A stretch of DNA of 32,356 nucleotides from a virus (taxonomy: Duplodnaviria; Caudoviricetes). The notes under the pieces were generated by a model. It was given only the letters and a program-made list of their open reading frames with translations. It had not been told where the DNA came from and did no database searches. This document shows, in pieces, positions 9,190 through 31,267 of the stretch (position 1 is the first letter of the stretch; each line of letters opens with the position of its first letter). The position numbers and the translations under genes were made by a program. Location of the stretch: IMG/VR virus record IMGVR_UViG_3300012921_000062, positions 1 to 32,356 of that record; one strand, given 5' to 3'.

Positions 9190-9245
9190 GGTTCAGCATC
9201 CTTGCAGCGGGCTTGTGGTTGGGAGTGGCGGACGGGTGTTTGATT

Positions 9246-9518
9246 TCAGTCTTCGACCACCGGCTGCTCGGCGGGGATGAGTCCCAGCACGATCTTAAGC
9301 TGATCGGAGCGGATGCCGACTTCGCGGACATTTCCGGCACGCTCGGCACCGAGACGCAGATCGGCTAGCAGCTTGGCCTCATACGTGCCGGCGGGTGCCA
9401 CCGCCGCAGCGAGTCCTCGCAGCCAGTCACTGAGCGGCACCCGGACGACGCGTGCGGAGGCTTTCGCGTGGCTTGCTGCAGGCTTTCCGTCGAGAGCGTT
9501 TTGCAATACCTGAATCAT
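9246..9518 (-). CDS. Hypothetical protein in tail module
   Basis: 90 aa ORF with GAAAGG upstream; fills the gap between tail tube and chaperone. Confidence 0.55.
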   Translation of the reverse strand: MIQVLQNALDGKPAASHAKASARVVRVPLSDWLRGLAAAVAPAGTYEAKLLADLRLGAERAGNVREVGIRSDQLKIVLGLIPAEQPVVED

Positions 9519-9575
9519 CGAACTGGCCTTTCGGTTGAACTGGGATGGGGTGACGACGTGTATTGCGATGTGGAA

Positions 9576-10037
9576 TTACGCGCCTTCTTCGGTGACGCGT
9601 TCCACCACGGGCGTGGTGGAGTCGTCCGGATCACGCACCACCAGCTTCACCGTGGTGTTGGTGTGCCCTTCCTGGTCCTGAGTTTCTCCAAACTCGGAGA
9701 CTTCCATCTGGATACGCACGCCCTTGCGGTCCCCGCTGGTCGCATCGGCTGCGCGCAGCACCATCAGATCCAGCTGCGTGCTGTTCCAGTAGGAATCCTC
9801 AAACGCCACATACTGGGTATCCCCATCATCAGCGTTCATCTCGAATTCCAGGCCGAACTCTTTCAGCGTGCCGATGAAGGCCTTGTAGCCCCCATGCCGA
9901 CGCGTGGTGACTTCGCCCATGGTTTTGGTTTTCGGGATGCCGGGGTTCCGGACATTCTTAACTTCAACCCAGGTGGGGGAAGCGTACGTGCCGGTGTTCC
10001 GTTTCAGCACGCAATCGAGACCAGCACGAGCACCCAT
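9576..10037 (-). CDS. Major tail tube protein
   Basis: 153 aa, beta-rich (WVEVKNV...EVTTR...YKAFIGTLKEFGLEFEM); position before the chaperones. Confidence 0.8.
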   Translation of the reverse strand: MGARAGLDCVLKRNTGTYASPTWVEVKNVRNPGIPKTKTMGEVTTRRHGGYKAFIGTLKEFGLEFEMNADDGDTQYVAFEDSYWNSTQLDLMVLRAADATSGDRKGVRIQMEVSEFGETQDQEGHTNTTVKLVVRDPDDSTTPVVERVTEEGA

Positions 10038-10087
10038 GGTGCAATCCTTTCAGGGATGAGACGAAACAGGGTCAACACGAGACGGAC

Positions 10088-10116
10088 CGGCGGTGATTTC
10101 GGTGAAATCACCGCCG
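10088..10116. promoter_or_regulatory. Perfect 13-bp inverted repeat CGGCGGTGATTTC-GGT-GAAATCACCGCCG upstream of the tail tube gene
   Basis: Read directly; the core recurs at 14496-14512 and 18241-18257. Confidence 0.55.
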
Positions 10117-10539
10117 TCGCGAGATGTAGCGCGGCGTCGAACACTGCCAGCCCTGCGGCGTCCAGCGGCAGTTGCTGGCCGTGGCCGGCATCGGCTGCGG
10201 GGTAAACCGAACGGCTGGCAGGGGGGGCGACGGAGCGGCCGTCATCTCGGGCGGCACAGGTCGCTTGGCCATGACCTCGAACGACAGCGCGGGCACGGCG
10301 GTCGCCATGGGTGCGGAGCGCATCGCGGCGAAGTCGATCGCCGGAACGGCCGTCAGCGGCCGGTCGGGCAGCATGGCTTGGAATGACAACTCGGCCGCGG
10401 CCGCACTCGTGGCGATCGAGCACAGCAGCGCGGCAGTGGCCACACGCACACAGCAGCCCCGCACCATCAACAGCGACGCCAGGCCAAAGGCCAGCACAGC
10501 AAAGAGCAACAGCATCATCAGAACACCCATCCTTTCCAT
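10108..10539 (-). CDS. Small membrane/secreted protein of the putative lysis cassette
   Basis: Two N-terminal hydrophobic segments, Pro/Ala linker, C-terminal C-x8-C motif. Confidence 0.6.
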   Translation of the reverse strand: MERMGVLMMLLLFAVLAFGLASLLMVRGCCVRVATAALLCSIATSAAAAELSFQAMLPDRPLTAVPAIDFAAMRSAPMATAVPALSFEVMAKRPVPPEMTAAPSPPLPAVRFTPQPMPATASNCRWTPQGWQCSTPRYISRRR

Positions 10540-10543
10540 AGAA

Positions 10544-11605
10544 TCAAGGAGCCCGCTGAGGTCGCAGCGGGGAGAAGTCGATTTCCTGAGCCGGGAAGCC
10601 CGTCACGGAACTGAAAGCCCAGAACGTGCCCCCTTGGAGCATCCATTGGAGTGTGGCCAGCGAGACTCGGAAGGAGCCCGGTGGATCTTCGCCATTGGCA
10701 GGATGTGCATCGATACCGTGCGAGTTATGCAGCACACACTGCTGACGTGCGCCATCCCAGCCGACAAAGGCCACCTGGTGCCCACCCTGGTCCGTCCCGT
10801 CGAAATGCGTGATGATCCGCCCCGATTCTGTCCGCGTGCGGCCTGGCGACCAGGTGAAGGCCGCCGTCCCCGCGTAGCCGTTTTGCAGGGCTTCGATCAG
10901 CTCGTCCACGGTGCGAATCGGATAGCAGTCGCCACCCGCGCGGGCCTTGGCCAGTCGCAGCCATTCAGCGGGCGGACCGCTGCAGCCGAGCTTGCGGGCC
11001 AGGGCTCCCGAATAGGGCTGCTGGGCCTCGCCATAGGTCAGCCAGCCCCGCGCCTTGAAACCCTCGGCACAATCATCAGGATAAGCGCCGTCACTGCGGC
11101 AGCCGGGGCGGCCACCGCCAATAGTGACTCGCATCACGCCATACTGAAACGGCTGAAACGGGTCATCGATACCGCTGGCGTTGCCCGACAGCACCGCATT
11201 GGCCAGCGTGTAATAGACCGCCGTGGCCCAGCCAAAGGAGACACAGTCGCCGATCTGCTGCGGCCCCGGGGGATAGTGCTGGCCGCGCGGCTTGCGCGGC
11301 GATTCCACCTGCAGCACGGCCTGCCAGAGCAAGGCCGATTTGCGGCGGTCCACCGCGCCGGCCACTCGAAAGGGAGCAGGATAGCGGGCCTCGGCTGCCC
11401 GGGAGACTTTCAGGAAGTCGGCAGGCAGACCCGCCTGGAACTTTTGCGGAGCCGCTGCGGCCATCACCGGCGGGTCAGGTGACTGCGGGGCTTCGGGCGG
11501 GCAACTGCGCCACACGAGTGCCGCCAGGCTGACCAGCAGGCAACAAGCCAGCAGGCGATTCAAACCCAGCTGGGACCAGGCCACACGGAATTCAAAGCGG
11601 GGCAT
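10544..11605 (-). CDS. Papain-like (C1-type) cysteine peptidase with N-terminal membrane anchor
   Basis: QQIGDCVSFG (oxyanion Q, catalytic C), GGHQVAFVG (H), HNSHG (N); hydrophobic LLACCLLVSLAALVW; alternative start 11614. Confidence 0.85.
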   Translation of the reverse strand: MPRFEFRVAWSQLGLNRLLACCLLVSLAALVWRSCPPEAPQSPDPPVMAAAAPQKFQAGLPADFLKVSRAAEARYPAPFRVAGAVDRRKSALLWQAVLQVESPRKPRGQHYPPGPQQIGDCVSFGWATAVYYTLANAVLSGNASGIDDPFQPFQYGVMRVTIGGGRPGCRSDGAYPDDCAEGFKARGWLTYGEAQQPYSGALARKLGCSGPPAEWLRLAKARAGGDCYPIRTVDELIEALQNGYAGTAAFTWSPGRTRTESGRIITHFDGTDQGGHQVAFVGWDGARQQCVLHNSHGIDAHPANGEDPPGSFRVSLATLQWMLQGGTFWAFSSVTGFPAQEIDFSPLRPQRAP

Positions 11606-11644
11606 GCGGACCATCCTTGGTCAAAGGGAAGAATGACAAACAAT

Positions 11645-12610
11645 TCACTTCGCCGCAGCGTTCAGTCCCGTGAGCGACTCTTCTGCCAAGGTCTTCCACT
11701 GCGCCATCGTCGGCAGTTGTCCCGACGTGTAGAGTTTGATCACTTTGTCCGTGAAGGCCGTGCGGGCATCATTCCAGGCTGTGGGCAGGCACTCGTTGAA
11801 TGCGGCACCGATCGCATTTACGACCGCCTGCGGCGTGGTCAGCTTCTTGTCCTCGATATCAGACGCCAGTTGCGACACTTTGCCCGCCAGGCACAGAGTC
11901 TCACTGCGGCGGTTGCTGGAGTTGACGAACTTCACCAGGTCATAGGTCGCCTGGGCCATGCCGAACTCGCCCACGGGAAAGGTGGGCTCCGGATCCGGCT
12001 GCGGAGTCGGATCCGGAGTGGGGGTGGGTTGCGGCGGCGGCGCGGGGGCGGGTTTCGGGGTGGGAACGGGAGGCGTGGGCGGGACATACGAATCACCCGG
12101 CACGAAGAAATCGTGATAACGCAGCACGGGCTCCTGACCAGGCACGGCGACCGAGACAATCAGTTTGTACATGCCGGACATTGTGTTCATGCGGGCGATG
12201 CGTCCCCCCTCTTTGGCTTCGAGCAGGGGCAAGTCGTCGCGCTTCGGGAAATGGTCCCAGGCAATGCGCGTCCCCTCGGGCAAGTCCCCTTGCACATAGA
12301 GGTCGCAGGGATAGCCCGGCACGGGCACAGAAGAAGGCCCGACGATGCGAATGTTATCGGCGGCCACGGCCTGACCCGCCAGCCCGCACAGCAGCAGAGC
12401 GGGGAGCAGCTTCTGCCACATCGCGGTCGTGATCGCGGAGCCGAGATGGCTCTGCACTGATTTGAGGACCGTATTGACCAGGACAGGGATCCCGGCCGCG
12501 AGAATCGGCGTCCAGACCGGACCGAAGTCCGTCGACGTAAAGAACTGAATCACATAAGTGGCCAGCACGCCGGACAGACCGAGCAGAAACGATTTGATGT
12601 AAGTCGACAC
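11645..12610 (-). CDS. Holin-like two-TM domain fused to a signal-peptide-bearing Pro-rich exported protein
   Basis: GTG 12610 with GGAG RBS; two short TM helices, then MWQKLLPALLLCGLAGQAVA signal-like peptide (ATG 12421), a beta domain, a PxPxP linker and a helical C-terminal domain. Confidence 0.6.
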   Translation of the reverse strand: MSTYIKSFLLGLSGVLATYVIQFFTSTDFGPVWTPILAAGIPVLVNTVLKSVQSHLGSAITTAMWQKLLPALLLCGLAGQAVAADNIRIVGPSSVPVPGYPCDLYVQGDLPEGTRIAWDHFPKRDDLPLLEAKEGGRIARMNTMSGMYKLIVSVAVPGQEPVLRYHDFFVPGDSYVPPTPPVPTPKPAPAPPPQPTPTPDPTPQPDPEPTFPVGEFGMAQATYDLVKFVNSSNRRSETLCLAGKVSQLASDIEDKKLTTPQAVVNAIGAAFNECLPTAWNDARTAFTDKVIKLYTSGQLPTMAQWKTLAEESLTGLNAAAK

Positions 12611-12614
12611 AGCG

Positions 12615-13169
12615 TCACTCCATGGAGTTGCGGTAGAGTTCGGGAAAGTTATCGATCTCGGCATCCAGGGCCGGGCGCATGTAAGGCCGCGGCTCGATGT
12701 AAACTTGGCGACCCAGTCGCTGGCTGGTCACGTACCCGCCAAACTCCAAGGCCTGCGGAGCGGATCCCGAGGTGCCATTGAGCTTGGCCGGTCCCACCAC
12801 CACGGAGCGGCGACTGGGGTCATACACGAAGTAAATGTGATCGCGGAGCAGACCCCAGATCGAGCGGGGCGGCTCGCCGGGTTTACTGTGGGCGAACCAC
12901 CAGATGCGGGGCTTGGCTCGCCCCTCACGCTGGGCACGGTCGACAGCAGCGTAGTAGGCGATCCGTTCCTGCGGATCGAGTTCCGACTCGCGTTTCCGCC
13001 GGGCCTTGCGGATGCTGCTGCGGGAGCGACGACGGACGAAAGCCCCCGCCTTGCTGAGGCGATTCTTCTCGCCCCGATCCAGGCTGCGAATCACGCGCTC
13101 ACGGTCGAAGAAAAACCGCCCGACCGAAGCCCCCACTCGGTTGCCGAGTTGTCCGGAGAAAAACGTCAT
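12615..13169 (-). CDS. Neck/tail completion protein (HK97 gp10/virion morphogenesis-like)
   Basis: Basic protein; SKPGEPP..G.LR..I, LEFGG and IEPRPYMRPAL motifs; ATGA overlap with the upstream gene. Confidence 0.75.
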   Translation of the reverse strand: MTFFSGQLGNRVGASVGRFFFDRERVIRSLDRGEKNRLSKAGAFVRRRSRSSIRKARRKRESELDPQERIAYYAAVDRAQREGRAKPRIWWFAHSKPGEPPRSIWGLLRDHIYFVYDPSRRSVVVGPAKLNGTSGSAPQALEFGGYVTSQRLGRQVYIEPRPYMRPALDAEIDNFPELYRNSME

Positions 13170-13609
13170 GGCGCCTCCTCCGGCGGGCTGTAACCGAGCA
13201 GGCACTCCACGCTGACGAAGGCTAGAAACACCCGCGTCTTGGAGAGGGCTTCCAGGTCATAACGCGGCACCATGCTCCGCCGAATGACCCGCGCACCGGC
13301 GAGCCGGAGTTCCCGGCAGAAGTCGTGGATCTCACGCACGAGGTGCAGCAGGGGATCAATCGTTTCGCTGCCTGTGCTGCCCACCTTCTGGTGGATGGCG
13401 ATCATCAGGCCGTGGGTTTCCTCGTCCGCATAGCGGGTGTCGAGTTTGCTTTCCGTCCCAACCATCAGCACTGTGACGGACAGCTCCTCGGACGTAGTCA
13501 ACTGCTTGCGCTCGAGGTAACGACGCACCGCCGTGAACTCCGCCGAAAACGCATGAGCGTTCAAGGCGGTCACCAGAGCCTCGGCGATATCGATGATCGG
13601 TTCACTCAT
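13166..13609 (-). CDS. Tail terminator-like protein
   Basis: 147 aa in the neck cluster; ATGA coupling; position-based call. Confidence 0.6.
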   Translation of the reverse strand: MSEPIIDIAEALVTALNAHAFSAEFTAVRRYLERKQLTTSEELSVTVLMVGTESKLDTRYADEETHGLMIAIHQKVGSTGSETIDPLLHLVREIHDFCRELRLAGARVIRRSMVPRYDLEALSKTRVFLAFVSVECLLGYSPPEEAP

Positions 13610-13974
13610 CGCTGCACCGTATGGAGACGGAAGCCGCTGCGGTTGCTCGCCAGCGGCTCCCAGACGTGGTCATTCATGCCCGGCGAGACCATCCAGGTCT
13701 CGGCCGGCACACCATCCACGACACCCACGAGGATCAGGTCACCCACCTCGGGCTGCGTGGCCTCGCCATCGAGCACGTAATCGGCCAGGAAGCCGATCCA
13801 GTCGCGCTCGCCCCATTGCCGCGTAAAGCCGTGCTGCCCCTGGGCGGCGTTGTCCTGGTCGGCGGGCATCAGGCGGAGTTCCGCCTGCAGTTCGCCGCGC
13901 TGCAGGACCACGTCGAGACCGCCCACACGCAGCAGCGTGCGGAGCGGCCCTTCGGTAAAGAAATCCAGCGACAT
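13606..13974 (-). CDS. Head closure/head-tail joining protein (gpFII-like)
   Basis: 122 aa, beta-rich with PEVGDLI motif; follows the capsid genes. Confidence 0.65.
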   Translation of the reverse strand: MSLDFFTEGPLRTLLRVGGLDVVLQRGELQAELRLMPADQDNAAQGQHGFTRQWGERDWIGFLADYVLDGEATQPEVGDLILVGVVDGVPAETWMVSPGMNDHVWEPLASNRSGFRLHTVQR

Positions 13975-14008
13975 GACACAGACTCCCGGGGCCAGGCGGC
14001 CGGACCGA

Positions 14009-14416
14009 TCAGAACATGAGCGACACGGTGAACGACTTGTCCGAGGCGTCGCCGGCGTCGCTGTTGGTGGCTTTCACCCGCACGTAGCGATTCACGTTCG
14101 AGGGCAGTCGAAAGCGGGCCGAAGCGGCCGCGGCTCCGGCCCCGCCAGCGCCGGTTTGCACCAGGACTTCCTTCGCGATGGCGACCGCTGTGCCAAACGC
14201 CGGGTCCGTGTCATGCTCGATCGAGTATTTCATCGTGTCGGCATCGCCCAGGTCGGCCGTCACCAATGCGGGAGCCTCAATCAGCAGTTCGCACGGAGCC
14301 AGGAAATCCCCGTTGCTGCCGTGTCCGAGATCGAAGCCATCGGTCGACGTGGAGCCCGCACCGTTGGGCAGGGCCTTGGTTTGAATGAGTTGCGCGTCAC
14401 GCACTCCGAATTCCAT
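14009..14416 (-). CDS. Capsid cement/decoration protein (Bbp16-like)
   Basis: D..L...AL....STDGFDL N-terminus and LPSNVNRYVRV C-terminus; directly after the major capsid gene. Confidence 0.7.
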   Translation of the reverse strand: MEFGVRDAQLIQTKALPNGAGSTSTDGFDLGHGSNGDFLAPCELLIEAPALVTADLGDADTMKYSIEHDTDPAFGTAVAIAKEVLVQTGAGGAGAAAASARFRLPSNVNRYVRVKATNSDAGDASDKSFTVSLMF

Positions 14417-14440
14417 GATGATCGCCTTTCAGGTGGCCAG

Positions 14441-14466
14441 GTGACCGGCGGTTGCCCGCCGGTCAC
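14441..14466 (-). other. 11-bp stem hairpin with GCAA (GNRA) tetraloop after the major capsid gene
   Basis: GTGACCGGCGG/CCGCCGGTCAC perfect stem; no U-tract follows, so more likely an mRNA stabiliser than a terminator. Confidence 0.6.
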
Positions 14467-14509
14467 GGGAAGTTACAAGAACAAAGAGAGTCCGCTGATT
14501 ACGCCGAAA

Positions 14510-15421
14510 TCAGGCGATGGCTTCGGTGTCGACGATGGAATCCGTGGGCACGAGCGGAATGCCGTCGAAGTCCTGTGGCGTGGGCACTTCCTTGCCGGTT
14601 TCGGTGGTCGCCGTACGGCTCTTCCGCAGCTGCGTAATCGAGCGTCGAGACGCGAAGATCACATCCGGCTTCCAGCCCACCGGGAACTTGGCCATCGCAT
14701 CAGCCATCAGGGCGTCGGTCAGGCCCTTACCGGCCTGGGCCGTCAGATTCTTGATCCGCACCACGCTGTTGAGGCTGGCCAGCTTGAGGCCGATCCACGC
14801 CAGCATTTCCTGGTGATAGACGGTCATCTTCTTGCCGTTGGAGTCGGTCTCCACGACCTCCTTGACGTCGGACAGCTTCAGTTCGGCGTTGTTCCCGTAG
14901 AGGAACTGCAGACCCATCGGACCCCACTTCACAAACCACACGCTGGAGCCGGTGTCGGCCGTGGTGCCGGTGGCATCGACCGTCATCGCATCGGCGTTGT
15001 ACATCGCCAGGAGCCCGGGGAACCCCTTCGCATCGTTGCCGGTGCCGTAATAGAACTGCTTGCCGACGTGAATGAACTGTCCCATCGTGATGCCCGAGGC
15101 CTCGGTCGCGATGTAGGACGCGGCCCCGTCCTCGTGGGCATCAGCGACGGCCTTATCGCAAGTCCAGATAGGGTTGGCGATGAAGCAATTGAAGAGCCGC
15201 TCCTCGAAATTCGATTTGACGGGGGCCGTCCCCTCATTCGCATTGCGGAAGCTGCCCCCGGGCAGGGCGGTGCGGACGTTTTGCTTGTACTGGATCCCCT
15301 TGATGGGCCGCGACGCCCCCATCCGGATCTCCGGCACCGCCAGTTGGACTTCGTCCACGAGAGCCGACAGGCCCTCACTGCCGAGAGATTTCGCGATATC
15401 GAGCAACGTAGGCAGAGGCAT
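14510..15421 (-). CDS. Major capsid protein
   Basis: 303 aa; PTLLDIAK, VRTALP...FRNANEG, FYYGTGNDAKGFPGL and GIPLVPTDSI..TEA resemble BPP-1-type HK97-fold capsid proteins. Confidence 0.9.
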   Translation of the reverse strand: MPLPTLLDIAKSLGSEGLSALVDEVQLAVPEIRMGASRPIKGIQYKQNVRTALPGGSFRNANEGTAPVKSNFEERLFNCFIANPIWTCDKAVADAHEDGAASYIATEASGITMGQFIHVGKQFYYGTGNDAKGFPGLLAMYNADAMTVDATGTTADTGSSVWFVKWGPMGLQFLYGNNAELKLSDVKEVVETDSNGKKMTVYHQEMLAWIGLKLASLNSVVRIKNLTAQAGKGLTDALMADAMAKFPVGWKPDVIFASRRSITQLRKSRTATTETGKEVPTPQDFDGIPLVPTDSIVDTEAIA

Positions 15422-15505
15422 GACAGCATCCTTGCGGGTGATAAGTGAGAATCAGTGCTCCCGGTCCCACAGTCGCAGTGATCACACATCCGCAGTGCCC
15501 GCGGA

Positions 15506-18606: not shown

Positions 18607-18620
18607 GTGAGCATCCTTTG

Positions 18621-20726
18621 TCAGTGATAGGAGACTTTGGGGGCACGTTTAGTTTTGGAACGCGGCTCGCCCATGCCCGTGTAGGTGGGCTGGCAGCCGA
18701 GCTCCTCGCCGCCGATCCAGGCGAGTTTCGTGGCATCGAGCCAGTGATTGTCTGCACCGGGACGCAGCAGATATTTCCGCACCTTGCTGCCGTCCGGCCG
18801 TGGTTCATCTATCGGATCCTCGGAGGTCAGGTGATCGCAGAAGCAGCGGTGCTCGGCGTGCTGGGCCTCGAACATGAGCCAGGCCCCGGCCGCTCCCTTG
18901 GGCGTCATGAAGGCGTTGTGCACCTTGGAGATCCACACGGGGCTGTTGACCACGGCGTACCGCACCGGACGTCGACCAGGTGGCGGGACGTAATAATCCT
19001 CGCCCTTCGACCAGCGCGCCCCGCCGCTGGTTTTGCGGGCCGGGTTCGGCATCTTGGATGCCGTGGCCCCCTGGGTGGGAAAGAGCATCGCGGAATACTT
19101 GGACTCACGGCAGAAGCGAAAGACGACGTCGGGCAAATACCCGGCATCGATCACAATCTTTCCCACACGCACGATTTCCGGGGACTCCTCTCGCTGCAGC
19201 TCCATTTTAATGAGCTCCGTCGTGGCCGCGTCCAGGGCCGCATACAGCCGGGCCTTATCGTCGCGCTCGATCTTGTCACGGTCAAACAGGGCTTTTTCAA
19301 TTGTGGGGGAGGCATCCCGCTTGAGAAAGTAGCGGGTGTTCTGTTTTGGCCAGGTGCCATAATCGAGCACGTAGCCGGTCGGGACATGCTCCAGGCCGGC
19401 GATGACCCAGTACAAGAGATCGTCATGGCAATCGAGCCCCGCAGCCACATATTGCACCGGCTGCGGGACGATGCCACGATCGCGGCCGCTGAGACGCTTG
19501 AGCAGATGCTTCACTTCCAGCTTGCGGATATCACAGACCATGCCCGTGGCGGGATCGTTCTGGGCCTCGGCATAGAAGGCCTGGCGATCGCGGAGCCATA
19601 AGTTGATCGCGTGCTGGATGGCTGACACTTCGCCCGGATCGAAGTGTTCTGCCCACGTCTCTTCCGCGAGCGCATCGATGACCTTGCGGTTCTTTTTGTA
19701 GTGCGCGTTGCCCGCGGCTCCCTCGTCTCCGTTGCGGAGCCCTTCCCGCCGCGCTTCGCCGTACTGCCGCCACGGGCCGAGGTCTTTCTCCTCGGCCATA
19801 CGCTTCAGCATCTTGTACCGCCGGCCGCCGTACTCCGGATGGAGATCACGGTTCAGGATCCGGTCCGCCATATCGTTTGGCTTGATCACGGTGCACGGCA
19901 CAATCCCCGACAGCGGCGCGCCGGGCCCAGCCATGCCGAGCACTGCCCCCGCCAGCAGCCCCTCACGCTGATCGTTCTGTTTAGCGCTGGCGGCAGATCG
20001 ATCAGTCTGGGGATCGTCGGCGATGAATAGTGTGGGCCGCACGCGATCGCCATTCGGGAACACATGCGATGTGCCGCGAATCTCCGAGCCCAGCAAACCA
20101 CCACAGCGGATGATGGATCCGCGAAAGCTGGTCCCAGTCAGCGGCGGTAAGATGATCTCGGTGTTGTGGGCACGGACCACGATCCGCTCGCCATTGAAGA
20201 GCGGCTTCCGCTGATTGGTCCCTTCGAGGGACTGGATCGGCAGGCAGACTTCGGGGAAATCCTCTAGCAGGAGCTCGTTGGATTCCAACTCCGTACGCAC
20301 CGCCTTCATCAGATCGACGGCTTTGCCCTTGCTCGCCGCGATCAACATCACGAACCGATGGCCATGGCAGAGGATGGCCCACAAGACCGCCACTTCGCAC
20401 AGGGCTGTCTTGCCACTGCCGCGCGGCATGGCCAGCGACACGATGCCGGTGCCGGTGATGATCCGCTCGAAGTCGGCCATCACTTCCAGATGGTGCGGCC
20501 CCCACTTCTTCGTGAAGCGGGCCGCGAAATAGGTCTCACAGAATTTGCGGAGCGACTTGGTGGCCGCCGCGCGGCGTTTAGGATTTACGACCTTGGGCAG
20601 CGGGCCGATCTCGCGATCTTTCGCCGACTGTTCGCGCTGTCGCTGGCCTTCACGCTCACGTTTGCCGGCATACTTGCGCTGCTGCGGATCCTGCTGGGAA
20701 TCGTTGGCATTGGATCGCTTGGCCAT
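18621..20726 (-). CDS. terL: Terminase large subunit (GpA-type)
   Basis: Walker A MPRGSGKT, Walker B LFIADD, nuclease motifs GLDCH, VIDAGY and DNHWLD. Confidence 0.93.
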   Translation of the reverse strand: MAKRSNANDSQQDPQQRKYAGKREREGQRQREQSAKDREIGPLPKVVNPKRRAAATKSLRKFCETYFAARFTKKWGPHHLEVMADFERIITGTGIVSLAMPRGSGKTALCEVAVLWAILCHGHRFVMLIAASKGKAVDLMKAVRTELESNELLLEDFPEVCLPIQSLEGTNQRKPLFNGERIVVRAHNTEIILPPLTGTSFRGSIIRCGGLLGSEIRGTSHVFPNGDRVRPTLFIADDPQTDRSAASAKQNDQREGLLAGAVLGMAGPGAPLSGIVPCTVIKPNDMADRILNRDLHPEYGGRRYKMLKRMAEEKDLGPWRQYGEARREGLRNGDEGAAGNAHYKKNRKVIDALAEETWAEHFDPGEVSAIQHAINLWLRDRQAFYAEAQNDPATGMVCDIRKLEVKHLLKRLSGRDRGIVPQPVQYVAAGLDCHDDLLYWVIAGLEHVPTGYVLDYGTWPKQNTRYFLKRDASPTIEKALFDRDKIERDDKARLYAALDAATTELIKMELQREESPEIVRVGKIVIDAGYLPDVVFRFCRESKYSAMLFPTQGATASKMPNPARKTSGGARWSKGEDYYVPPPGRRPVRYAVVNSPVWISKVHNAFMTPKGAAGAWLMFEAQHAEHRCFCDHLTSEDPIDEPRPDGSKVRKYLLRPGADNHWLDATKLAWIGGEELGCQPTYTGMGEPRSKTKRAPKVSYH

Positions 20727-20922: not shown

Positions 20923-21567
20923 CTAAGCCGTGGTCTTCGAGACCTTCACCTTCGCAGGTGAGACCACGATGGCATCATTACAGCCAGTGACGTTGATGCC
21001 GAGGTTCTTGAGTGTGCCGCGGTTCTTTGGGAACTGCTCCCACACGGCTTTGATGCCGTCCTTGTCGAGTGACGGCGTGAGACGAATGATCTGCTGCAGG
21101 CTGAATACCCCCAGTGTGATCTTCTTCAGCAGGTTCGCCACCAGACTTGGCAGCTTGATCTTCTTCTCGATCGCCGCGACCACGGCCTTTTCATTGACGC
21201 CTTCGCCCAGGGTGACGGCCAGGGGTTGCAGCTTCAGCGAGAGATCCCCGTGAGCCAGCTTCAGCGTTTTGCTGTCGCGGGCGAGATGCTGCTGCAGATG
21301 CTCTTCAGCCCACGCCTGCAAGGCGGTCTCCAGGGCCTCAGCCCGTCTATGCACCGTCGTGCTGGGCACGTCTTCATCAGCTAGCCGCAAAGCAAACAGG
21401 GCCTCTTGCGCGGTCTTCAGCGCTTCGACCTTAGCCTTGGTCTCCGCATCGATGGTGGCAATGCGATGTTGACACCAGCCGAGCTCATGCAGGGCCGCGT
21501 CGACGTCGTCCAGGCTAGTGAGGGTGAATTCGGCCGCGAGAGCAGCCGGGCGGGAGGGGATGGCCAT
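20923..21567 (-). CDS. gam: Mu Gam-like host-nuclease inhibitor / DNA end-binding protein
   Basis: SLDDVDAALHELG helix, coiled coil, LQAWAEEH, SKTLKLAHG.L and LDKDGIK motifs. Confidence 0.8.
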   Translation of the reverse strand: MAIPSRPAALAAEFTLTSLDDVDAALHELGWCQHRIATIDAETKAKVEALKTAQEALFALRLADEDVPSTTVHRRAEALETALQAWAEEHLQQHLARDSKTLKLAHGDLSLKLQPLAVTLGEGVNEKAVVAAIEKKIKLPSLVANLLKKITLGVFSLQQIIRLTPSLDKDGIKAVWEQFPKNRGTLKNLGINVTGCNDAIVVSPAKVKVSKTTA

Positions 21568-21743
21568 CAGAGCTTCCTTGCTTCGATCTGCCCGGTTGGC
21601 CGTGAAAATGATAAACTGCCCCGCTCACATCGTGTGGTGGCATCCGTGCCACGGGGCAGTTCTGTCGACCGAGGGACCGGGTGACATGTTCAGAGCACAA
21701 TCTTGGCGCTCTGCAACTGTCAAGGCCGAACTGTGAGGAAACG

Positions 21744-21929
21744 ATGGCCAGGGCTAAAGCACATAAGAATGTCGCCTTCTCCATTCCGCTTGAAGACTTC
21801 AAGCGGTTGGAACGATACGCGTCAAAGCAACGGCTTTCAAAGAACGCGTTGCTGCTGAGGCAGATCTTCCCACTGCTGGAGACCTTGCGCGAGCTCGATG
21901 AGCAGCAGGAAGATGCTGAGGGTCAATAA
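21744..21929 (+). CDS. Small ribbon-helix-helix DNA-binding protein
   Basis: GAGGA RBS; KNVAFSIP strand followed by two helices; the only credible plus-strand gene, divergent from gam. Confidence 0.6.
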   Translation: MARAKAHKNVAFSIPLEDFKRLERYASKQRLSKNALLLRQIFPLLETLRELDEQQEDAEGQ

Positions 21930-21936: not shown

Positions 21937-22173
21937 TTACCCGCCCTTTTTCGGTCGGCCCCGGCGGCGCTTCGGGGGGGCGGGCTGTTCGTCATTGCGC
22001 GGCCTGCCCTCAGGCCGCACGGTTTCGAGCAATTCTGGACGTCCCATTTTTTCGCACATCGCTGCGAGGATGTACTGAGACAGGTTGATCCCGTGGGCTT
22101 CGCACCAAACCTCTACAGCTTGGTCGATCGCAGCGGGTACGCGGATGTTGACTTTGCGACTTGGTGGCATCAT
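21937..22173 (-). CDS. Ribbon-helix-helix regulator with C-terminal AT-hook motifs
   Basis: KVNIRVP...GINLSQYI (RHH) and GRP motifs (EGRPR, KRRRGRPKK). Confidence 0.7.
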   Translation of the reverse strand: MMPPSRKVNIRVPAAIDQAVEVWCEAHGINLSQYILAAMCEKMGRPELLETVRPEGRPRNDEQPAPPKRRRGRPKKGG

Positions 22174-22185
22174 GCACATGGTGGC

Positions 22186-23187
22186 TTACTCCGTTTTTGA
22201 TTGCAATTCAGGGGCGGTGGTCCACGGTTGCGGGATCTTGCTCTGCGCGGGCCGCAACACGGTCTCCAGCGACTGGATGTAGTGCGTCCATGTGATCGTC
22301 GATGCGGCCCACTCCTTGGGCAGGGTGTGGCCCAGCAGCATTGACCCTGCGATGGTGTCGACAGCGCTGTAAGCGTTGCCCGCCGTGCGCCTGAGACCTT
22401 GCGCAGTGAATCGCGGCACGTTCGCTGCCTTGCAAATTTCGGTGAGCGTTTTCCGCAGCAGATCAGGCTGATACCTGGTCTTGATCGCGATGAATATCGG
22501 CACATCGGGACCACGATCGGGCAGCGTATCGAGATGATCGATCATGATCTGATTGAGCGGCAACAGCAGCTTTTTCCCGTGTCGCTCGGTCTTATGCGGC
22601 ACGATGCTGATCATCATGTTTTGTCGATCGATCATCGATCGACTCAACCGCTCGGTGAGGTCCCCGTATCGCAAGCCGGTGTTGTACCCAATGACCAGCC
22701 ATGCGCGAAAAAACGCACAAGGATCACAGTCGGGCGGTGCCCACATCGCGTCCTTGCAAGCGCGATAGACTGCGCGGAGATGCTCGGTCGGAATCGGCGG
22801 CTCCACGCGTGTCTCAATCATCAGCTTATCCCCAATCCAGGGGCACGGCCCGATCAGCCCCAGCGCGCGTGGTGTGCTGCTGGTGTTGGGCCCGACGTGC
22901 CTCAGAACGGTGCGCATGAGTGCGATGTGCGTCTCGATCGTGATGGGTTTCATTCCCTTCGCCAGCGCGGCTTCGCGGAATCGATTGAAGTCGGCGGTCG
23001 TGATCTTTCCCGCGCGCTGCTCGCAGCCCACAGCCCGCCAGTGCCCAGCCAAGGTAGGCAGCTTGAGTTGTCGTGCTCGGCTGATCTTGCGTGTCTGTGC
23101 ATGCTGGTAATAGATCGCCACGGCACGATCGACAGTGAGCGCAGGTGTGTAGATTTTGCTGATCATGGAGCGAATGAAATTAAACAC
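22186..23187 (-). CDS. Tyrosine recombinase/integrase
   Basis: TGLRYGDL (R), PHKT (K), AQGLRRT (HxLR variant), LLGHT and TWTHY (Y); start GTG 23187 or ATG 23166. Confidence 0.85.
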   Translation of the reverse strand: MFNFIRSMISKIYTPALTVDRAVAIYYQHAQTRKISRARQLKLPTLAGHWRAVGCEQRAGKITTADFNRFREAALAKGMKPITIETHIALMRTVLRHVGPNTSSTPRALGLIGPCPWIGDKLMIETRVEPPIPTEHLRAVYRACKDAMWAPPDCDPCAFFRAWLVIGYNTGLRYGDLTERLSRSMIDRQNMMISIVPHKTERHGKKLLLPLNQIMIDHLDTLPDRGPDVPIFIAIKTRYQPDLLRKTLTEICKAANVPRFTAQGLRRTAGNAYSAVDTIAGSMLLGHTLPKEWAASTITWTHYIQSLETVLRPAQSKIPQPWTTAPELQSKTE

Positions 23188-23267
23188 GAATGCACCTGAT
23201 AAACAGGGGCATCCGTGCCCGGACTGAGAGAATCGAAACGCTTCAGTGCCCATTTGCTCGGGCTGGG

Positions 23268-23528: not shown

Positions 23529-23554
23529 AAAAAAGGCGGGTGGCTGTCCCCGCC
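23529..23554 (-). terminator. Intrinsic terminator-like hairpin inside the operon
   Basis: Minus strand GGCGGG-GACAGCCA-CCCGCC-TTTTTT. Confidence 0.55.
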
Positions 23555-24203: not shown

Positions 24204-24218
24204 ACAAGATGGATGAGG

Positions 24219-24749: not shown

Positions 24750-24795
24750 TAACTGTACCACAGTTATCGACAGACGCAATATCTGTGGTACAGAT
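24750..24795 (-). promoter_or_regulatory. Sigma70-like promoter flanked by two palindromic operators
   Basis: Minus strand TTGCGT-N16-TACAGT with extended TG; palindromes TAACTGT-ACC-ACAGTTA (24750-24766) and ATCTGT-GGT-ACAGAT (24781-24795). Confidence 0.65.
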
Positions 24796-24868
24796 TTTCT
24801 TGGATTTTCGGGAAGTTGTCAAAAGGCCCGAAAATCAGGGCGTTGGCGGGGCTGCTGCTGATAGTTGG

Positions 24869-26286: not shown

Positions 26287-26576
26287 GACTCGATTCCTTT
26301 CCTGGGTAAGCGACTTTGTTTGCGGGAGTACTCGATCACGCGATCGAGATGGCCCCGCATGAATTCACGGACCTGGCCTTCGTCGAAGCTGGTGGCCTTG
26401 CCAGCGAGGATACGGTTTGCCTGGCTGTCGGCGACCACGTGCGGCGAGTGCGAGAATGTGCCGAAGCCATACGTCCGGGCGGCGGCACAGACCCCGATCA
26501 CGTACAACGCCTGGTCGCGAGGTGACAAGGCGTCGATATCGAGCGACTCGGCCCCGATGAAGGGTGGATCGATCAT
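26283..26576 (-). CDS. Hypothetical protein
   Basis: 97 aa, ATGA-coupled on both sides. Confidence 0.6.
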   Translation of the reverse strand: MIDPPFIGAESLDIDALSPRDQALYVIGVCAAARTYGFGTFSHSPHVVADSQANRILAGKATSFDEGQVREFMRGHLDRVIEYSRKQSRLPRKGIES

Positions 26577-27571
26577 GATGCCACCTGCGGAAACTCATCC
26601 CACGTGCAACCGTCCAGTTCTCGACCGGCCGCGTCGCGGCCGATGCGTTGCATCCATTGATAGCCAGGGTCAAACGACTTCTCGATCCGCTGCGCTTCGG
26701 TTTCGTCCTTGGCGTTGTGCAGTCGTCTGCAAAACCGAGTAAACCGGCTCAGCGCATATTCGTTCACGAGCGTCAACTTGCCCGCTGGACATTCGGCATT
26801 CGACATCAGGCACACAGAACCATCACGCAGCATCGCCAGGCCAGCCACCTTTCCATAGCGATATTGGCCTTCTCCCGTCGCGTAGTTCCCGCTGGCTTCC
26901 GAATGCCATTCCCCCCATTGCTTGAAGAAGAACGACACCCCAGCGGCTTGGCACTCATCTCGGGTCGAGCGTGCCCAGTCGGGATGCATTGGTCGGGCCT
27001 GTGGACCAGACTCGCCGCCACACACAATCCAGTCGAGTTTTTTGAGATGCTGCCCCCACTTGATGGGACCGAGGGCAGGCTCATAGCTGACCCAGCGGAC
27101 GGCAGCAGGGATGCGGGACAGAATCGGCAGCCGCTGTTTCGCTCGCTCTTGATCCTCGACGGTCGTGCCCACCCACACGTGCGGCCAACCCTCTCCCCAG
27201 TCGGCTGGCAGATGATCCAGAATCCTTTCCGGTCGCTTGGTGACAAGTTGGTACACCACGTCCCGCCGGGTCCGCATGATTTCCCACGCATCATCACGCC
27301 AGGCGTCAGCCCATTCGTGAAAGAAATCCGACCACGAACAGACAAAGATCTTCCAGCCGGAGGGGATAGCGTGTTCTCCGGTCCGCTTTTGCTTCAAGGG
27401 AAGTCGGAACGTCGAGGGCATCGATCGCCGCACGATGGCTGGGTCTTTCCCGTAGCGCTTCATTTCGCGGAACATGTAGCAGTGGGCACACGCGGGGCTG
27501 ACCTTCGTGCAGCCCTGCCACGGGTTCCAGGTCGCGTCGGTCCACTCGATGGCGGATGTCTGTCCCATCAT
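26573..27571 (-). CDS. DUF5131 / phage Gp37Gp68 family protein (radical-SAM-like)
   Basis: TSAIEWTDATWNPWQGCTKVSPACAHCY, TKRPER, SYEPALG, WIVCGGESG and FFFKQWG motifs. Confidence 0.92.
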   Translation of the reverse strand: MMGQTSAIEWTDATWNPWQGCTKVSPACAHCYMFREMKRYGKDPAIVRRSMPSTFRLPLKQKRTGEHAIPSGWKIFVCSWSDFFHEWADAWRDDAWEIMRTRRDVVYQLVTKRPERILDHLPADWGEGWPHVWVGTTVEDQERAKQRLPILSRIPAAVRWVSYEPALGPIKWGQHLKKLDWIVCGGESGPQARPMHPDWARSTRDECQAAGVSFFFKQWGEWHSEASGNYATGEGQYRYGKVAGLAMLRDGSVCLMSNAECPAGKLTLVNEYALSRFTRFCRRLHNAKDETEAQRIEKSFDPGYQWMQRIGRDAAGRELDGCTWDEFPQVAS

Positions 27572-28251
27572 GCCTCCGCTTTCTGCCGGTTGGTCAACGC
27601 ACAGCCGGTGCAAGTCGCTGTGACGTTGGGCGGGAGTTCATCGGGTTCGGTGGCCATCTTCCAGCACGCGGCCCCACAGATGTCACAGGTGGTTTGTTCC
27701 CAGCCCTGGGCACCTTTGGGCACGTTGGCCACCAAAGGACGGCAGATGCGAAACTGCTGACCCGCAGGCCAGATCGCATCGCAGATCAGCCAGACTTCGG
27801 CTTCGCTGGGCTTTCGCAACGTGACCCACTGACCGTCAACATGTTTGTAGGCCAGCCAGCCCTTGCCGGGGCCGCTGGTGACCAGCTTCATTTCCCGCTG
27901 GTTTGCCACGTCGTAGAAACCGATACCGATCGGCTCATGAGGCTGCGGCTGCGTCCGATGCCGATGGTCGTGCAGATCATCAATCATCGTCCGGTCGTGT
28001 TGCACTGCGCAGTCAACACAAAAGAACTGCACCGGCCGGCCGAGTCGGCTCGGCAGGCCGTTTGCAAATTGCAACGCGAAGGTGTCCGCATGCAGGGCTT
28101 GGCCGCACCGGCGGCACGCACAGGGATGGATGCCCTGCATGCGTTCGCGAATCTCTTCCCCCGCATTGGCAGCCACGATGATCACGGCATCATCGGGCCA
28201 AGGGATCGAGCCCGCCTCAGTGTCGAGACGTGGCCCAGCGTTAACGCACAT
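27568..28251 (-). CDS. Hypothetical protein with two zinc-finger-like domains
   Basis: CRRC...CVDC and CDIC...CTGC pairs. Confidence 0.6.
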   Translation of the reverse strand: MCVNAGPRLDTEAGSIPWPDDAVIIVAANAGEEIRERMQGIHPCACRRCGQALHADTFALQFANGLPSRLGRPVQFFCVDCAVQHDRTMIDDLHDHRHRTQPQPHEPIGIGFYDVANQREMKLVTSGPGKGWLAYKHVDGQWVTLRKPSEAEVWLICDAIWPAGQQFRICRPLVANVPKGAQGWEQTTCDICGAACWKMATEPDELPPNVTATCTGCALTNRQKAEA

Positions 28252-28254
28252 GGT

Positions 28255-29292
28255 TCAGTTCTCCGAAATGGAATGGGCGATCGCTTCGAGGACCGCATAC
28301 CGCAGGGCCGAATTCCGCTGCTGGATGCGCTCCCAGCTTTCGTACTCGACCAGGCGGTTCCGGATCGGCTCAGGGATCGCGAACGCATCCGCAATCGCCT
28401 GGGGCGTCTTTCCGGCCACCTGGTCTTCAAACAACTCCAGTTGCCGGTACCGCGCGTCACTCTGCCGTTGGGCGGACGCATCCGACCCAGACGGCAGCGT
28501 GGAGCGCGCGGACTGTGGCACGCGGTCGGGACGATCGGGTTTCATCCAACCGTGCGGATCGCGGGCATCGTCGCCCGGACGCAGGTTGATCAAACGCCGC
28601 CGCACCTTTCCCGGTTCCCACGCTCCGGTCTCGCTGGCGTACCGCAGCACGTCGAGCGCGAGAGCCGGTGGGACGTGGTTTGATGCCAGGCTCTCCAGGG
28701 GCTTCCTCGCCTCGTGGATGCCTTGCCGAAACATTTCCCGTTCCACCACCGCCCACGTCGCCTCGGAGGGTGATGGGGATGGGGGGGAATTAGGAATAGG
28801 GGAATTCAGGAATGTAAGTCCCGCATTTGCATCCGCACTATCCCCCGCATTTACATCCGCACTATCCCCCGCACCGGTGCGGGTAATCGGTTCCATCCCC
28901 CGCAAAATCGGGGGTAATGGTGCGGGGGATTCCGGGGCAGGTGGCAGCGTCTCCAGCCAGGCTGGGGAGAGCACCCAGTAAAACCCCTGGGACCGACAGC
29001 CGTCACGATCATAGTGCAGCAGGCCCGCGTTACAGGCCTTCCGCCGCACGCGGTCGAGTTTGTCCTCGGACCAGTTCAATTGCCGTTCCAGCGTGGCATT
29101 CCAGAAGCAAGGGGGCCGCTGGTAGCGCATCAGGTCTTCGGTCATCACGATCACGGTCAGCAAGGCGAAGGCCTCGGTGCCTGTGATCTGCACGGCTCCC
29201 GAGTCGAGCAGTTGCCGCAGGTAGCGGTTGGCGAAGAAGGGAGGCCGCTGGGGATAATCCGCTCCACCAGGTGGCAAGGTGTGTTGTGTCAT
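28255..29292 (-). CDS. Phage replication initiator (lambda O-like architecture)
   Basis: N-terminal wHTH-like segment (WNATLERQLNWSEDKLDRVRRKACNAGLL) and a low-complexity linker encoded by tandem DNA repeats. Confidence 0.65.
   Translation of the reverse strand: MTQHTLPPGGADYPQRPPFFANRYLRQLLDSGAVQITGTEAFALLTVIVMTEDLMRYQRPPCFWNATLERQLNWSEDKLDRVRRKACNAGLLHYDRDGCRSQGFYWVLSPAWLETLPPAPESPAPLPPILRGMEPITRTGAGDSADVNAGDSADANAGLTFLNSPIPNSPPSPSPSEATWAVVEREMFRQGIHEARKPLESLASNHVPPALALDVLRYASETGAWEPGKVRRRLINLRPGDDARDPHGWMKPDRPDRVPQSARSTLPSGSDASAQRQSDARYRQLELFEDQVAGKTPQAIADAFAIPEPIRNRLVEYESWERIQQRNSALRYAVLEAIAHSISEN
28820..28873. repeat. Iteron-like tandem repeats (candidate origin)
   Basis: CCCGCATTT(G/A)CATCCGCACTATCC twice; CCGCA at 28821, 28833, 28845, 28857 and 28869 (12-bp period). 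Confidence 0.75.
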
Positions 29293-29332
29293 CGCTGAGG
29301 CTTCCATGCTGGTCTAGCGTTCCCAATATTCG

Positions 29333-29632
29333 TCAATGGACCGCTCCTGGGACTTTTCCGCGACCGCGGCCGCGGCTGCGGCTCGCTGGGCCTGCCAGTT
29401 CAAGCGGCACAGCAGGGCATCCCGCACGAACTGATTGCGGCGTCCGCCAGTGTGCAGCAACCGCACCAGCCAGGAGCCGGTCAAGTTCCCCGGGTGTCAT
29501 TGCGTCGACGGTCGGGCCGTACTGACTTTCGAGGGGGTGCGGAATCGGATCACGCTGGGGCTTTGGGGCAGCAGTCCGGAGCGGCTTGCCGACCACCACA
29601 AATTGAGTGCCTCGCATGCGCAACATGATCAC
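29333..29632 (-). CDS. Hypothetical protein
   Basis: GTG start with AAGGAG RBS. Confidence 0.5.
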   Translation of the reverse strand: MIMLRMRGTQFVVVGKPLRTAAPKPQRDPIPHPLESQYGPTVDAMTPGELDRLLAGAVAAHWRTPQSVRAGCPAVPLELAGPASRSRGRGRGKVPGAVH

Positions 29633-29733
29633 GACTCCTTAGGTTTCACGTCGGCTGCTGTCCCGTGGTCCGAGTCCACCCACGGGTCAGCAAGCCGACG
29701 CTATCCGTGGCCACAAGCCACGGGGAGAGAGTT

Positions 29734-30051
29734 TCAAACGCGGAGCGGGCCGCCGATCTGCACCACCAGGTGCCCGCCGACGGCAACGTCATCCGACAGA
29801 TCGAGCAGCAACGCTTCACCCGGTGGCGTGGCAAACCAGCCCGCCGGGTTGTACGGACAGGCAATGCCACCATTGGGGGCAAACGGCATCTCGCCCGTCA
29901 GTGCGCCACCATCGACGGCGAAGCTCACCGCCACTTCCCCAGCCACCACCAGGGCATACGCGAGAACCACAATCGGTTGGCCTTCTGACGCGGGGACCAG
30001 TTCGTGTTCGCCGCTCGTGTTCGCGTCGATCTCGTAATGTCGGATGGTCAT
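29734..30051 (-). CDS. Small beta-sandwich protein, structural-like
   Basis: 105 aa, beta-rich; starts 2 nt after the stop of the Ig-domain gene. Confidence 0.65.
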   Translation of the reverse strand: MTIRHYEIDANTSGEHELVPASEGQPIVVLAYALVVAGEVAVSFAVDGGALTGEMPFAPNGGIACPYNPAGWFATPPGEALLLDLSDDVAVGGHLVVQIGGPLRV

Positions 30052-30053
30052 GC

Positions 30054-30980
30054 TCAGCCAACTCCTAACAGGGTGATGTTGCGACCGCCTGGCAGGGCGA
30101 TCGAAAGAACGAGTGTTTCCGTGTCAGTCCCAGTGCCATTTGTGGCGGTGATCGAGACCTCGAACTCCCCCGCCTCGGTGGGAGTGCCGGTGATGGCCCC
30201 CGTGGCCGTGTTGATCGACAGGCCCGCGGGCAGGCCCGTAGCCCCATAGGACGTCGGGTAATTGTCAGCAGTCACCTGGTACGCGAACGCGGCATCCTGC
30301 CAGCCTGTGGCAGTCAGGCTGCTCGTGATCGCAGGGGCATCGACGGGGATCAAACAGAGCGAGGCCACCACGCAGTTGGTCGCGGACACGCCGCCGGTGA
30401 AGTTCCCGATCGTGGTCGTACCCGCTGACAGGGGCATTTTCTTGCCGACTGTGATGCGGCTGAGTGGCTCACTCCCTGGCCCGGCCGCCGAGGCCATCTG
30501 ACTGACGGTCGTGGTCTCGCTCGGCACGGCTGGATTGGTCGTGCTGATCCCGGAGTAGAACACCACGCCACAGCGATCGTTGCCCGATGATGTCAGGTCC
30601 GGACAGTTGACCGTGTTGTTCGCCGTCGCCACGTTTTCGGTCGGGGTCGCATGCTTGCACCCCGTGACGCGGTAGAGCCGGGCCGCGATCGTGGCCGTGA
30701 AGGATGCCGAGACGTTGGTGGCATAGCTGGCGGGCTCATTGTCGATATCGGTGATGGGCTTGGTGGCCACCACCAGGCGACGCGACCCATTCAACACATC
30801 GACCACCTTCGTGAAGCCGACCGGCAACGTGATCGCGTCGAAGTCATAGGCGCTGATGGCCCACAACAGCAGGTCACCATTGGCCAGGCTGCCCGGTCGG
30901 GCCGGTGCGATCGAGGCCCCGGCTGAGCCAGTGCCAGCGCTCGCGGCCGATGTGCTGTTCGGCAAATCGGGTGAACTCAT
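30054..30980 (-). CDS. Ig-like (He_PIG-type) domain protein
   Basis: APAITS...FAYQVTA...YGATGLPAGLSINTATGAITGTPT.AG.F.V.ITATN motif; ATGA overlap with the csrA stop. Confidence 0.8.
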   Translation of the reverse strand: MSSPDLPNSTSAASAGTGSAGASIAPARPGSLANGDLLLWAISAYDFDAITLPVGFTKVVDVLNGSRRLVVATKPITDIDNEPASYATNVSASFTATIAARLYRVTGCKHATPTENVATANNTVNCPDLTSSGNDRCGVVFYSGISTTNPAVPSETTTVSQMASAAGPGSEPLSRITVGKKMPLSAGTTTIGNFTGGVSATNCVVASLCLIPVDAPAITSSLTATGWQDAAFAYQVTADNYPTSYGATGLPAGLSINTATGAITGTPTEAGEFEVSITATNGTGTDTETLVLSIALPGGRNITLLGVG

Positions 30981-31222
30981 GCGGCCCCCTTCCACTCATG
31001 GCGTGGCATCACCAGGCCACTGTCGGAGAGTTCGTAACCCAGCGCCGCGAGGGCTGCGGGCGAATGCTGGTAGATCGCCAGCAGCACCTCGTGGCGATGG
31101 ATCGGGACAGATTGTGGTGCGGCGATGCCCAGGCGGACCTTGTCGCCACGAATGTCAACCACGGTGATTTCCACCGGGCCTGCCAGGATGCGTTCGTTGC
31201 GCTGACGTGACAGCACAAGCAT
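30977..31222 (-). CDS. csrA: Carbon storage regulator CsrA/RsmA (RNA-binding translational regulator)
   Basis: MLVLSRQRNERILAGPVEITVVDIRGDKVRLGIAAPQSVPIHRHEV; AAAGGAG RBS; C-terminal extension of about 30 aa. Confidence 0.95.
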   Translation of the reverse strand: MLVLSRQRNERILAGPVEITVVDIRGDKVRLGIAAPQSVPIHRHEVLLAIYQHSPAALAALGYELSDSGLVMPRHEWKGAA

Positions 31223-31267
31223 AGATCGGACTCCTTTCCGTTCGGGTTGCGTTCTTACTGACGACAG

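Follow-up and report, generated by a model that had tools for sequence, protein, structure and literature searches.

The window analyzed here is the complete 32,356-nucleotide stretch of a Caudoviricetes virus held as IMG/VR record IMGVR_UViG_3300012921_000062, and its early operon encodes a homolog of the regulator CsrA (csrA, 30977..31222, minus strand, 81 residues; PF02599, 67.1 bits against a cut-off of 27). A self-trained gene caller written for the present analysis identified 41 genes, 40 of them on the minus strand. Starting at the right end, these are csrA, a replication-initiator-like gene (rep), accessory genes, a tyrosine recombinase, two small ribbon-helix-helix (RHH)-like genes, Mu Gam, terminase, portal, protease, a GP7-type capsid, neck, a C1-like peptidase, tail genes, and a glycosyltransferase. 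The window is a prophage of a temperate planctomycete phage; of 40 genome loci that have a related capsid, most are labeled Planctomycetota, the rest being Verrucomicrobia or stray bins. Locus L126 holds an identical copy, in which the window end corresponds to base 173,909 of a 173,910-base contig, and the 122 bases at this end are common to the start of record G001. The prophage is cut at an assembly break (position 32356), so everything to the left of the early operon is missing from the window.

Several of these genes carry an ANGGA motif on the Shine–Dalgarno (SD) sequence, placed in the loop of a short hairpin. All nine strings quoted for such sites in a first-pass annotation were found at their minus-strand coordinates, and the 12-mer preceding the capsid and chaperone genes is identical in both, as claimed (genes and sites in this paragraph are all on the minus strand). 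The SD of the Mu Gam-like gene (20923..21567; PF07352, E = 4.5e-11), which is the first gene before the terminase and virion genes, carries a 3-bp AAGGAA hairpin (21571..21582) present in the predicted fold. A 5-bp ACGGAU hairpin lies farther upstream in the same leader (21637..21652, 75 nt before the start), and a second upstream gam-leader site is also found in G003 and G050. The C1-like peptidase gene (10544-11605; papain-type/C1-like by sequence, no significant match in the PDB) has a 4-bp AAGGAU hairpin (11609..11622), for which G001 has a 3-bp hairpin with another stem. Hexaloops with 2-bp stems lie on the SDs of the major capsid gene (14510-15421, PF20911; AAGGAU, 15426..15435), the tail-chaperone-like gene (8674-9189, named by position; AAGGAU, 9196..9205) and rep (28255..29292, a putative assignment with no Pfam match; AUGGAA, 29300..29309). 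The rep site contains an ATG, and the start of this gene is probably 29292; in the orthologous G003 leader the hairpin presents AUGGAC on a different, 3-bp stem, and the G041 rep leader has two sites. The first-pass list lacked the site at the post-tape-measure gene, whose SD carries a G-C-closed AUGGAG hairpin of 3 bp (6418..6429). At the Zn/CxxC gene (18608..18623) the listed string is present in a loose form, but the stem is 0 and there is no hexaloop hairpin; the G003 ortholog has a 3-bp hairpin.

The csrA gene itself carries one of these hairpins (31227..31240, minus strand; CGGA-AAGGAG-UCCG), with a 4-bp stem and an AAGGAG hexaloop overlapped by a second ANGGA. This site had been classed as looser, whereas it is a 4-bp hairpin within the predicted fold, at a cost of 0.1 kcal/mol. 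It is the same in G001, related hairpins occur upstream of csrA in G041 and G024, and it is likely an autorepression site. In the gam, capsid, chaperone, peptidase, csrA, and rep leaders, the site overlaps the SD, with the end of GGA 7–10 nt upstream of the start. Only the gam SD and csrA hairpins form as hexaloops in the lowest-energy fold.

Hairpins are in excess in the leaders of the window relative to coding DNA, shuffled sequence, and host leaders. CANGGAWG occurs nine times on the coding strand and three times on the opposite strand, and seven of the nine C-closed minus-strand hairpins with stems of at least 2 bp fall in leader zones, which make up 11% of the window (binomial p = 7e-6). 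C-ANGGAN-G hairpins with such stems are present on 4/41 SDs in the window and on 7/505 genes of host G003 (p = 0.006), and are thus commoner than in the ordinary SD context of a host. When only ANGGA-type SDs are counted, the proportions are 4/12 and 7/78 (p = 0.037), and in three further hosts 3/264 genes have an SD hairpin. This baseline was drawn from relatives of the true host, comprising 700 kb of G003 and the three other genomes. Shuffling the flanks with the SD core fixed gave a mean of 0.22 hairpins, and the observed four were reached in 0/3000 shuffles.

The same geometry is enriched among 2,566 de-duplicated leaders of related phage loci, the window's own included. ANGGA at SD distance occurs at 635 sites, of which 87 have C..G closure (57.8 expected from 2000 permutations). 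Stems of at least 2, 3, and 4 bp number 56, 33, and 20, against 15.3, 4.0, and 1.1 expected, beyond all 2000 permutations. The second stem pair includes all four Watson–Crick types (28/13/8/7), and the stem excess is confined to the six-base-loop register; it is lost with a first loop base other than A (4 against 5.0) or with a broken GGA (1 against 2.4). A-U-closed hexaloops are likewise raised (31 against 13.4), and five-base AGGAN loops in the pooled leaders show no enrichment (41 against 47.2). The sites are on the sense strand and peak 5–14 nt before starts, with 2/2566 in the antisense control. They are concentrated on capsid (11/141), tail tube (7/76), and gam (3/5) leaders of the pooled set, with eight of the 11 capsid stems, all of which are C-closed and at least 2 bp, reaching at least 3 bp. 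In a separate family-level search, C-closed stems of at least 3 bp were present in 7/26 gam leaders (30 loci minus four without a callable start; one is the G003 prophage). The prophage of G003, the nearest relative (capsid 83%), has two gam-leader sites in addition to sites on its Zn, tail-tube, and RHH genes. The hexaloop shape is that described for CsrA ligands from SELEX (systematic ligand evolution by exponential enrichment) in the accessible part of PMC7652899. The evidence supports the view that the hairpins on the SDs of gam, capsid, chaperone, peptidase, rep, and csrA are RNA structures under selection, with the shape of CsrA sites; relatives have them with other stems, and they accompany a csrA carried by the phage. 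Separately, upstream of the gam region in the G003 prophage (L208, ~14235-14265, minus strand), a CsrA-type hexaloop forms the loop of a terminator-like hairpin of 14 bp. A 6-bp hairpin in that prophage, taken at one stage as an integrase site, was dropped as it is inside a ParB-domain gene.

The link to csrA emerges from a comparison of 19 csrA+ with 27 csrA− phage regions (50 of 80 viral records, picked mostly by length, were examined for csrA; 12 have it). Stems of at least 3 bp are found in 19/798 genes of csrA+ regions and 0/1127 genes of csrA− regions. At least two sites are present in 7/19 csrA+ phages and 0/27 csrA− phages, and in 4/16 against 0/27 after removal of the window, G003, and G001, so that all hairpin-rich phages are csrA+. 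Nine csrA− prophages in hosts with 5–14 csrA copies have one site in 347 genes. On a capsid tree (a quick version), the hairpin-rich trait changes four times, a number as low in 32/500 shuffles.

The tyrosine recombinase (integrase-like; 22186..23187, minus strand; phrog_1, E = 2e-21) has a different leader architecture. R173, K199, R266, H287, and Y303 are invariant, and Q263 occupies the usual His position. Its start is likely GTG 23187, since this codon is where the closest homolog, P0122 (40% identical), begins to align with its first residues. The only ANGGA within 85 nt of this start can form a short hairpin (23207..23220, minus strand; 4-bp stem, ACGGAU hexaloop), the proposed CsrA-bound state. 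In the free RNA, a long hairpin is predicted instead (23182..23220, minus strand; 12+4 bp, −22.7 kcal/mol), in which the GGA-containing arm, CACGGAUGC, pairs with the segment holding the GUG start, and the SD (AGGUG) is paired too. The predicted pairing probability of GGA with the start region is 1.0, and the two folds are mutually exclusive because both use the CACGGAUGC arm. The DNA encoding P0122 (L412) has the same design in other letters, with a 5-bp UCGGC-ACGGAG-GCCGA hairpin alternating with a 10-bp helix over GUG. Compared with that of the window, its long helix has G-C once in place of U-A and twice in place of G-U; of its five short-stem pairs, four use bases left free by the long hairpin. 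The design is present in 2/43 integrase-like open reading frames (the window and this homolog) and, in weak form, in one other of the 2,566 leaders. In a motif scan (38 of 64 parts scanned, 117 distinct matches), G382, the record to which L412 belongs, is the sole match followed by an integrase. Scanning viral contigs with the capsid or the recombinase as a lone query found nothing, such searches needing alignments or a homolog. Eight more distant homologs show no clear switch; two of them have a looser ANGGA 34–40 nt upstream.

The site preceding the integrase in the first-pass annotation is thus present as a hairpin of CsrA shape, but it is buried in a longer one in the free RNA, and the modeled direction is the opposite of that supposed. 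On these folds, CsrA binding would likely activate translation of the recombinase. G382 appears complete, one gene being repeated at both ends, and it lacks csrA, so a host CsrA would have to read the switch there; host paralogs probably can. The recombinase is mid-genome in both phages and is thus not necessarily the prophage's integrase. An intrinsic-terminator-like hairpin (23535-23554, minus strand) would split the recombinase unit from the upstream early genes.

Alignment of the window CsrA with solved CsrAs shows that L2, L4, R6, V40, H43, R44, and E46 are kept, and R7 is replaced by Gln. In CsrA, the β1/β5 residues L2, L4, R6, V40, H43, and E46 make RNA contacts. The role of R44 is covered in the part of PMC7366521 consulted. 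The phage protein is intact and a putative GGA-RNA-binding homodimer. It is 58% identical to the nearest of the 16 other G003 CsrAs; the CsrA tree does not resolve, and only pairwise identities from correctly extracted rows were used. A divergent CsrA type, with Pro at position 6 and Lys or Arg at 43, is encoded on three prophage-like elements of the G003 chromosome (L208 19438-19686; L206 4786-5034; L349 10854-11102). Two of these elements have gam, terminase, and portal, and no capsid in the stretches read; their gam leaders lack a C-closed site. A search for antagonists gave no relevant Rfam match in the window and at most four ANGGA per 150 nt, in coding DNA; FliW was found in one of four related hosts (relatives of the true host).

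Other features accompany the genes named above. Just upstream of csrA (31267-31345, minus strand) is a tRNA-like relic with a T-arm and an acceptor-like stem, also present in G001 and not called by ARAGORN; neither ARAGORN nor Rfam gave a relevant match in the window. Five relatives (L249, L252, L261, L293, and L300) have a tRNA-Met no more than ~500 bases from csrA. A near-tandem 24-base repeat inside rep (28820-28875) is iteron-like. The peptidase belongs to a three-gene cassette (10108-12610, minus strand) encoding a membrane and proline-rich protein, the C1-like peptidase, and a small exported protein; its position differs among relatives, and it is possibly an unrecognized lysis module. 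The lysis output named in the first-pass annotation is a putative reading of this peptidase. Upstream of gam (21700-21725, minus strand), TTGACA is followed after 13 bases by a −10-like hexamer, a spacing that is the same in G003 and too short for a standard sigma-70 promoter. This region is flanked by the two RHH-like genes. One (21937..22179, minus strand) has a weak DUF6290 match (E = 0.063) and phrog_949 at E = 6e-4. The other (21744..21929, plus strand) is divergent from gam, with Atlas look-alikes that include CopG/RHH clusters at 0.94; it shares 34% identity with its syntenic counterpart in G003, where RHH_1 matches at E = 0.016, and is a candidate late-operon repressor.

The observation of the hairpins is real, and their reading as sites of repression is likely. 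On balance, the sequences make it probable that the phage CsrA represses through the SD hairpins of gam, capsid, chaperone, peptidase, rep, and csrA, and activates the recombinase. A CsrA dimer would clamp ANGGAN hexaloops on the SDs and block ribosome loading, and binding to the recombinase leader, which would be closed by default, would open the start region. Free CsrA would then mean less Gam, capsid, chaperone, peptidase, Rep, and CsrA, and more recombinase. The repressive sites would most likely be served mainly by the phage protein, with host paralogs able to substitute. The CsrA layer would be added onto an ordinary helix-turn-helix/RHH transcription circuit and would not replace it. 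Late lifting of repression may occur through titration by a late transcript or through dilution, both of which are guesses. We infer that CsrA binds, which CsrA does so, and whether each gene is turned up or down. The gating of phage translation by CsrA put forward in the first-pass annotation fits the CsrA-shaped hairpins on the gam, capsid, chaperone, peptidase, and rep SDs, but not the recombinase, for which the opposite effect is predicted. It is tempting, if doubtful, to go further and regard CsrA as doing at the RNA level what CII does in lambda: each incoming genome would produce it early, and it would add to the free CsrA of the host; it would shut replication and late genes and open the recombinase, all in translation, so that copy number and host state would bias the choice between lysis and lysogeny.

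A number of observations weigh against the proposal that phage CsrA acts on these leaders. ANGGA occurs in C-G-closed loops above chance, but the capsid, chaperone, and rep stems are just 2 bp each, and these three hexaloops and that of the peptidase are outside the lowest-energy fold, forcing them costing 1.5–3.4 kcal/mol. G-U pairs are not enriched in the pooled stems (6 against 10.0). The set of genes with sites shifts quickly: G003 and G001 lack the capsid site, and the chaperone site is absent in the G003 ortholog, where the tail-tube gene carries one instead. No site is present in 8/19 csrA+ phages, and the hairpin-rich phages represent about three capsid lineages, which when collapsed give 3/15 against 0/23 (p = 0.054); not all csrA− records are complete, and host genes are included in some regions. 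A set of five cultured csrA+ records (phi297, 50 kb of F116, VvAW1, 219E41.2, and PSTCR8lys) shows one site in 276 called genes, so carriage of csrA does not imply a hairpin circuit and the pattern is not general. In the CsrA of the G003 prophage, R6 is replaced by Pro and H43 by Lys, yet hairpins are kept there. CsrA homologs differ in target choice despite GGA motifs, according to the accessible portion of PMC13443453. For the recombinase, the switch rests on two sequences and a homology-inferred start, and opening the leader costs 7–13 kcal/mol and would thus need capture during transcription. In the model the start region is freed only partly, its unpaired fraction rising from 0.13 to 0.36–0.67 in the window and from 0.23 to 0.40–0.47 in L412, and other fold-window bounds left the SD paired. 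G382 has the switch but no csrA, and also no C-closed SD hairpins.

Some of these points suit an explanation in which the sites are real CsrA operators read mainly by the many host paralogs, with the phage csrA aimed at host transcripts or decaying. csrA is present in 25/33 genomes with related prophages, at up to 20 copies per genome (G003 has 17 CsrA and 10 Gam matches), and host leaders show a weak hairpin signal (6 against 1.5). The switch of G382 and the hairpins that persist beside a divergent CsrA in G003 point the same way, and host manipulation has been proposed for phage CsrAs in the available text of PMC8450108 and PMC11879866. Set against this, csrA− prophages are nearly free of sites even in CsrA-rich hosts, none of the 27 csrA− phages reaches two sites, and the window csrA retains the binding residues as well as an SD hairpin of its own, so that we consider this explanation unlikely. 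The recombinase leader may be a mere translation-blocking or terminator-like hairpin opened by something else, with the short GGA hairpin incidental and the SD sites still free to repress. The greater stability of the long fold, by 7–13 kcal/mol, the U-rich sequence that follows it, and the eight distant homologs would agree with this. The short hairpin is, however, kept in both leaders with different stems, the L412 pairs are mostly independent of the long fold, and the U-rich tail codes for the conserved N-terminus; the idea is possible but rather improbable.

The hint in the first-pass annotation that CsrA replaces a CI/Cro system is not supported. The absence of CI/Cro carries no weight, because the window is truncated and relatives have an XRE gene at that end. 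In the G003 prophage, the part that the window lacks includes a tRNA, a helix-turn-helix gene of XRE type (PF01381, E = 1.6e-13), and an integrase, and two more G003 elements have a similar helix-turn-helix gene at the same place beside the integrase (judged from sequence, not Pfam). That CsrA is the main lysis–lysogeny switch of a phage without such repressors is thus very unlikely; the predicted signs do fit, with replication and late genes down and the recombinase up, but the window ends one base from the contig end, RHH-like genes flank the gam promoter region, and the sites come and go between relatives. Least probable, and hardly to be credited, is that the motifs have nothing to do with CsrA and act either as generic stems that expose the SD or as sites in DNA (promoters, RHH operators). 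AAGGA is the usual SD here (ANGGA is found in 85/149 capsid leaders), and there is no G-U excess. However, other SD types and loop sizes show no comparable stem excess, the stem letters vary while pairing is kept, and the sites are sense-strand, clustered just before starts, and go with csrA.

Regulation by phage CsrA of the phage's own leaders, as preferred here, would place a translation-level input in temperate phage decisions and offer a first handle on why planctomycetes keep many CsrA paralogs. The locus gives named phage targets with controls, namely sites that follow csrA through a phage family, a likely autoregulatory site, and a predicted on-switch of opposite sign. New here are the SD hairpin of csrA itself and the predicted on-switch on the recombinase; phage csrA genes and the CsrA regulator itself were known. 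In the part of PMC7366521 available, 30 of 2,517 phages are csrA+. A 2025 paper, in its accessible text, describes the role of phage csrA in the phage life cycle as untested and favors host manipulation (PMC11879866). Where phage CsrA is discussed in the portions consulted of PMC11879866, PMC7366521, PMC8450108, PMC7546807, PMC12038007, PMC10269572, and PMC13443453, it is taken to be host-acting or is described as untested. A literature search that included few subscription papers found nothing on CsrA operators of phage genes or on a CsrA-activated integrase.

The closest parallels are the CsrA/RsmA/RsmE systems, in which CsrA represses by covering the SD and autoregulates, as described in the accessible text of PMC7652899. 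The window CsrA matched RsmE–hcnA (PDB entry 2JPP), and the sites share with these systems the C-G-closed GGA hexaloop, short stems, SD overlap, paired sites in one leader (here gam), and, probably, csrA autoregulation (PMC7652899, same portion). In contrast, both the targets and the protein are phage-borne here, the stems are mostly GC..GC and not AC..GU, and no CsrB/RsmZ-type sponge was found in the window. The recombinase leader resembles that of Escherichia coli ymdA, where CsrA activates by opening an SD-hiding hairpin (PMC7492729, in the part available); in both, the site lies within the hairpin that hides the ribosome-binding site, and binding would open it. ymdA has two sites and the recombinase one, and in the window the alternative fold is the CsrA hexaloop itself, the target is a phage recombinase, and activation is a prediction only. 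RsmM/Bci of phi297, AUS531phi, and F116, and gp28 of PTXU04, are likewise encoded by a csrA in a phage early region, and an infection benefit is reported for phage-borne CsrA homologs in the accessible parts of PMC11879866 and PMC7546807. Unlike the window protein, RsmM/Bci and gp28 are read as acting on the host, and the five cultured csrA+ records have no hairpin excess. Phages are known to tune their own translation and to gate integrase after transcription, as in translational repression by T4 RegA and in control of lambda int by sib. The proteins and mechanisms are unrelated to those proposed here, where a host-type global regulator would be reused and the gate would lie at the 5′ end.

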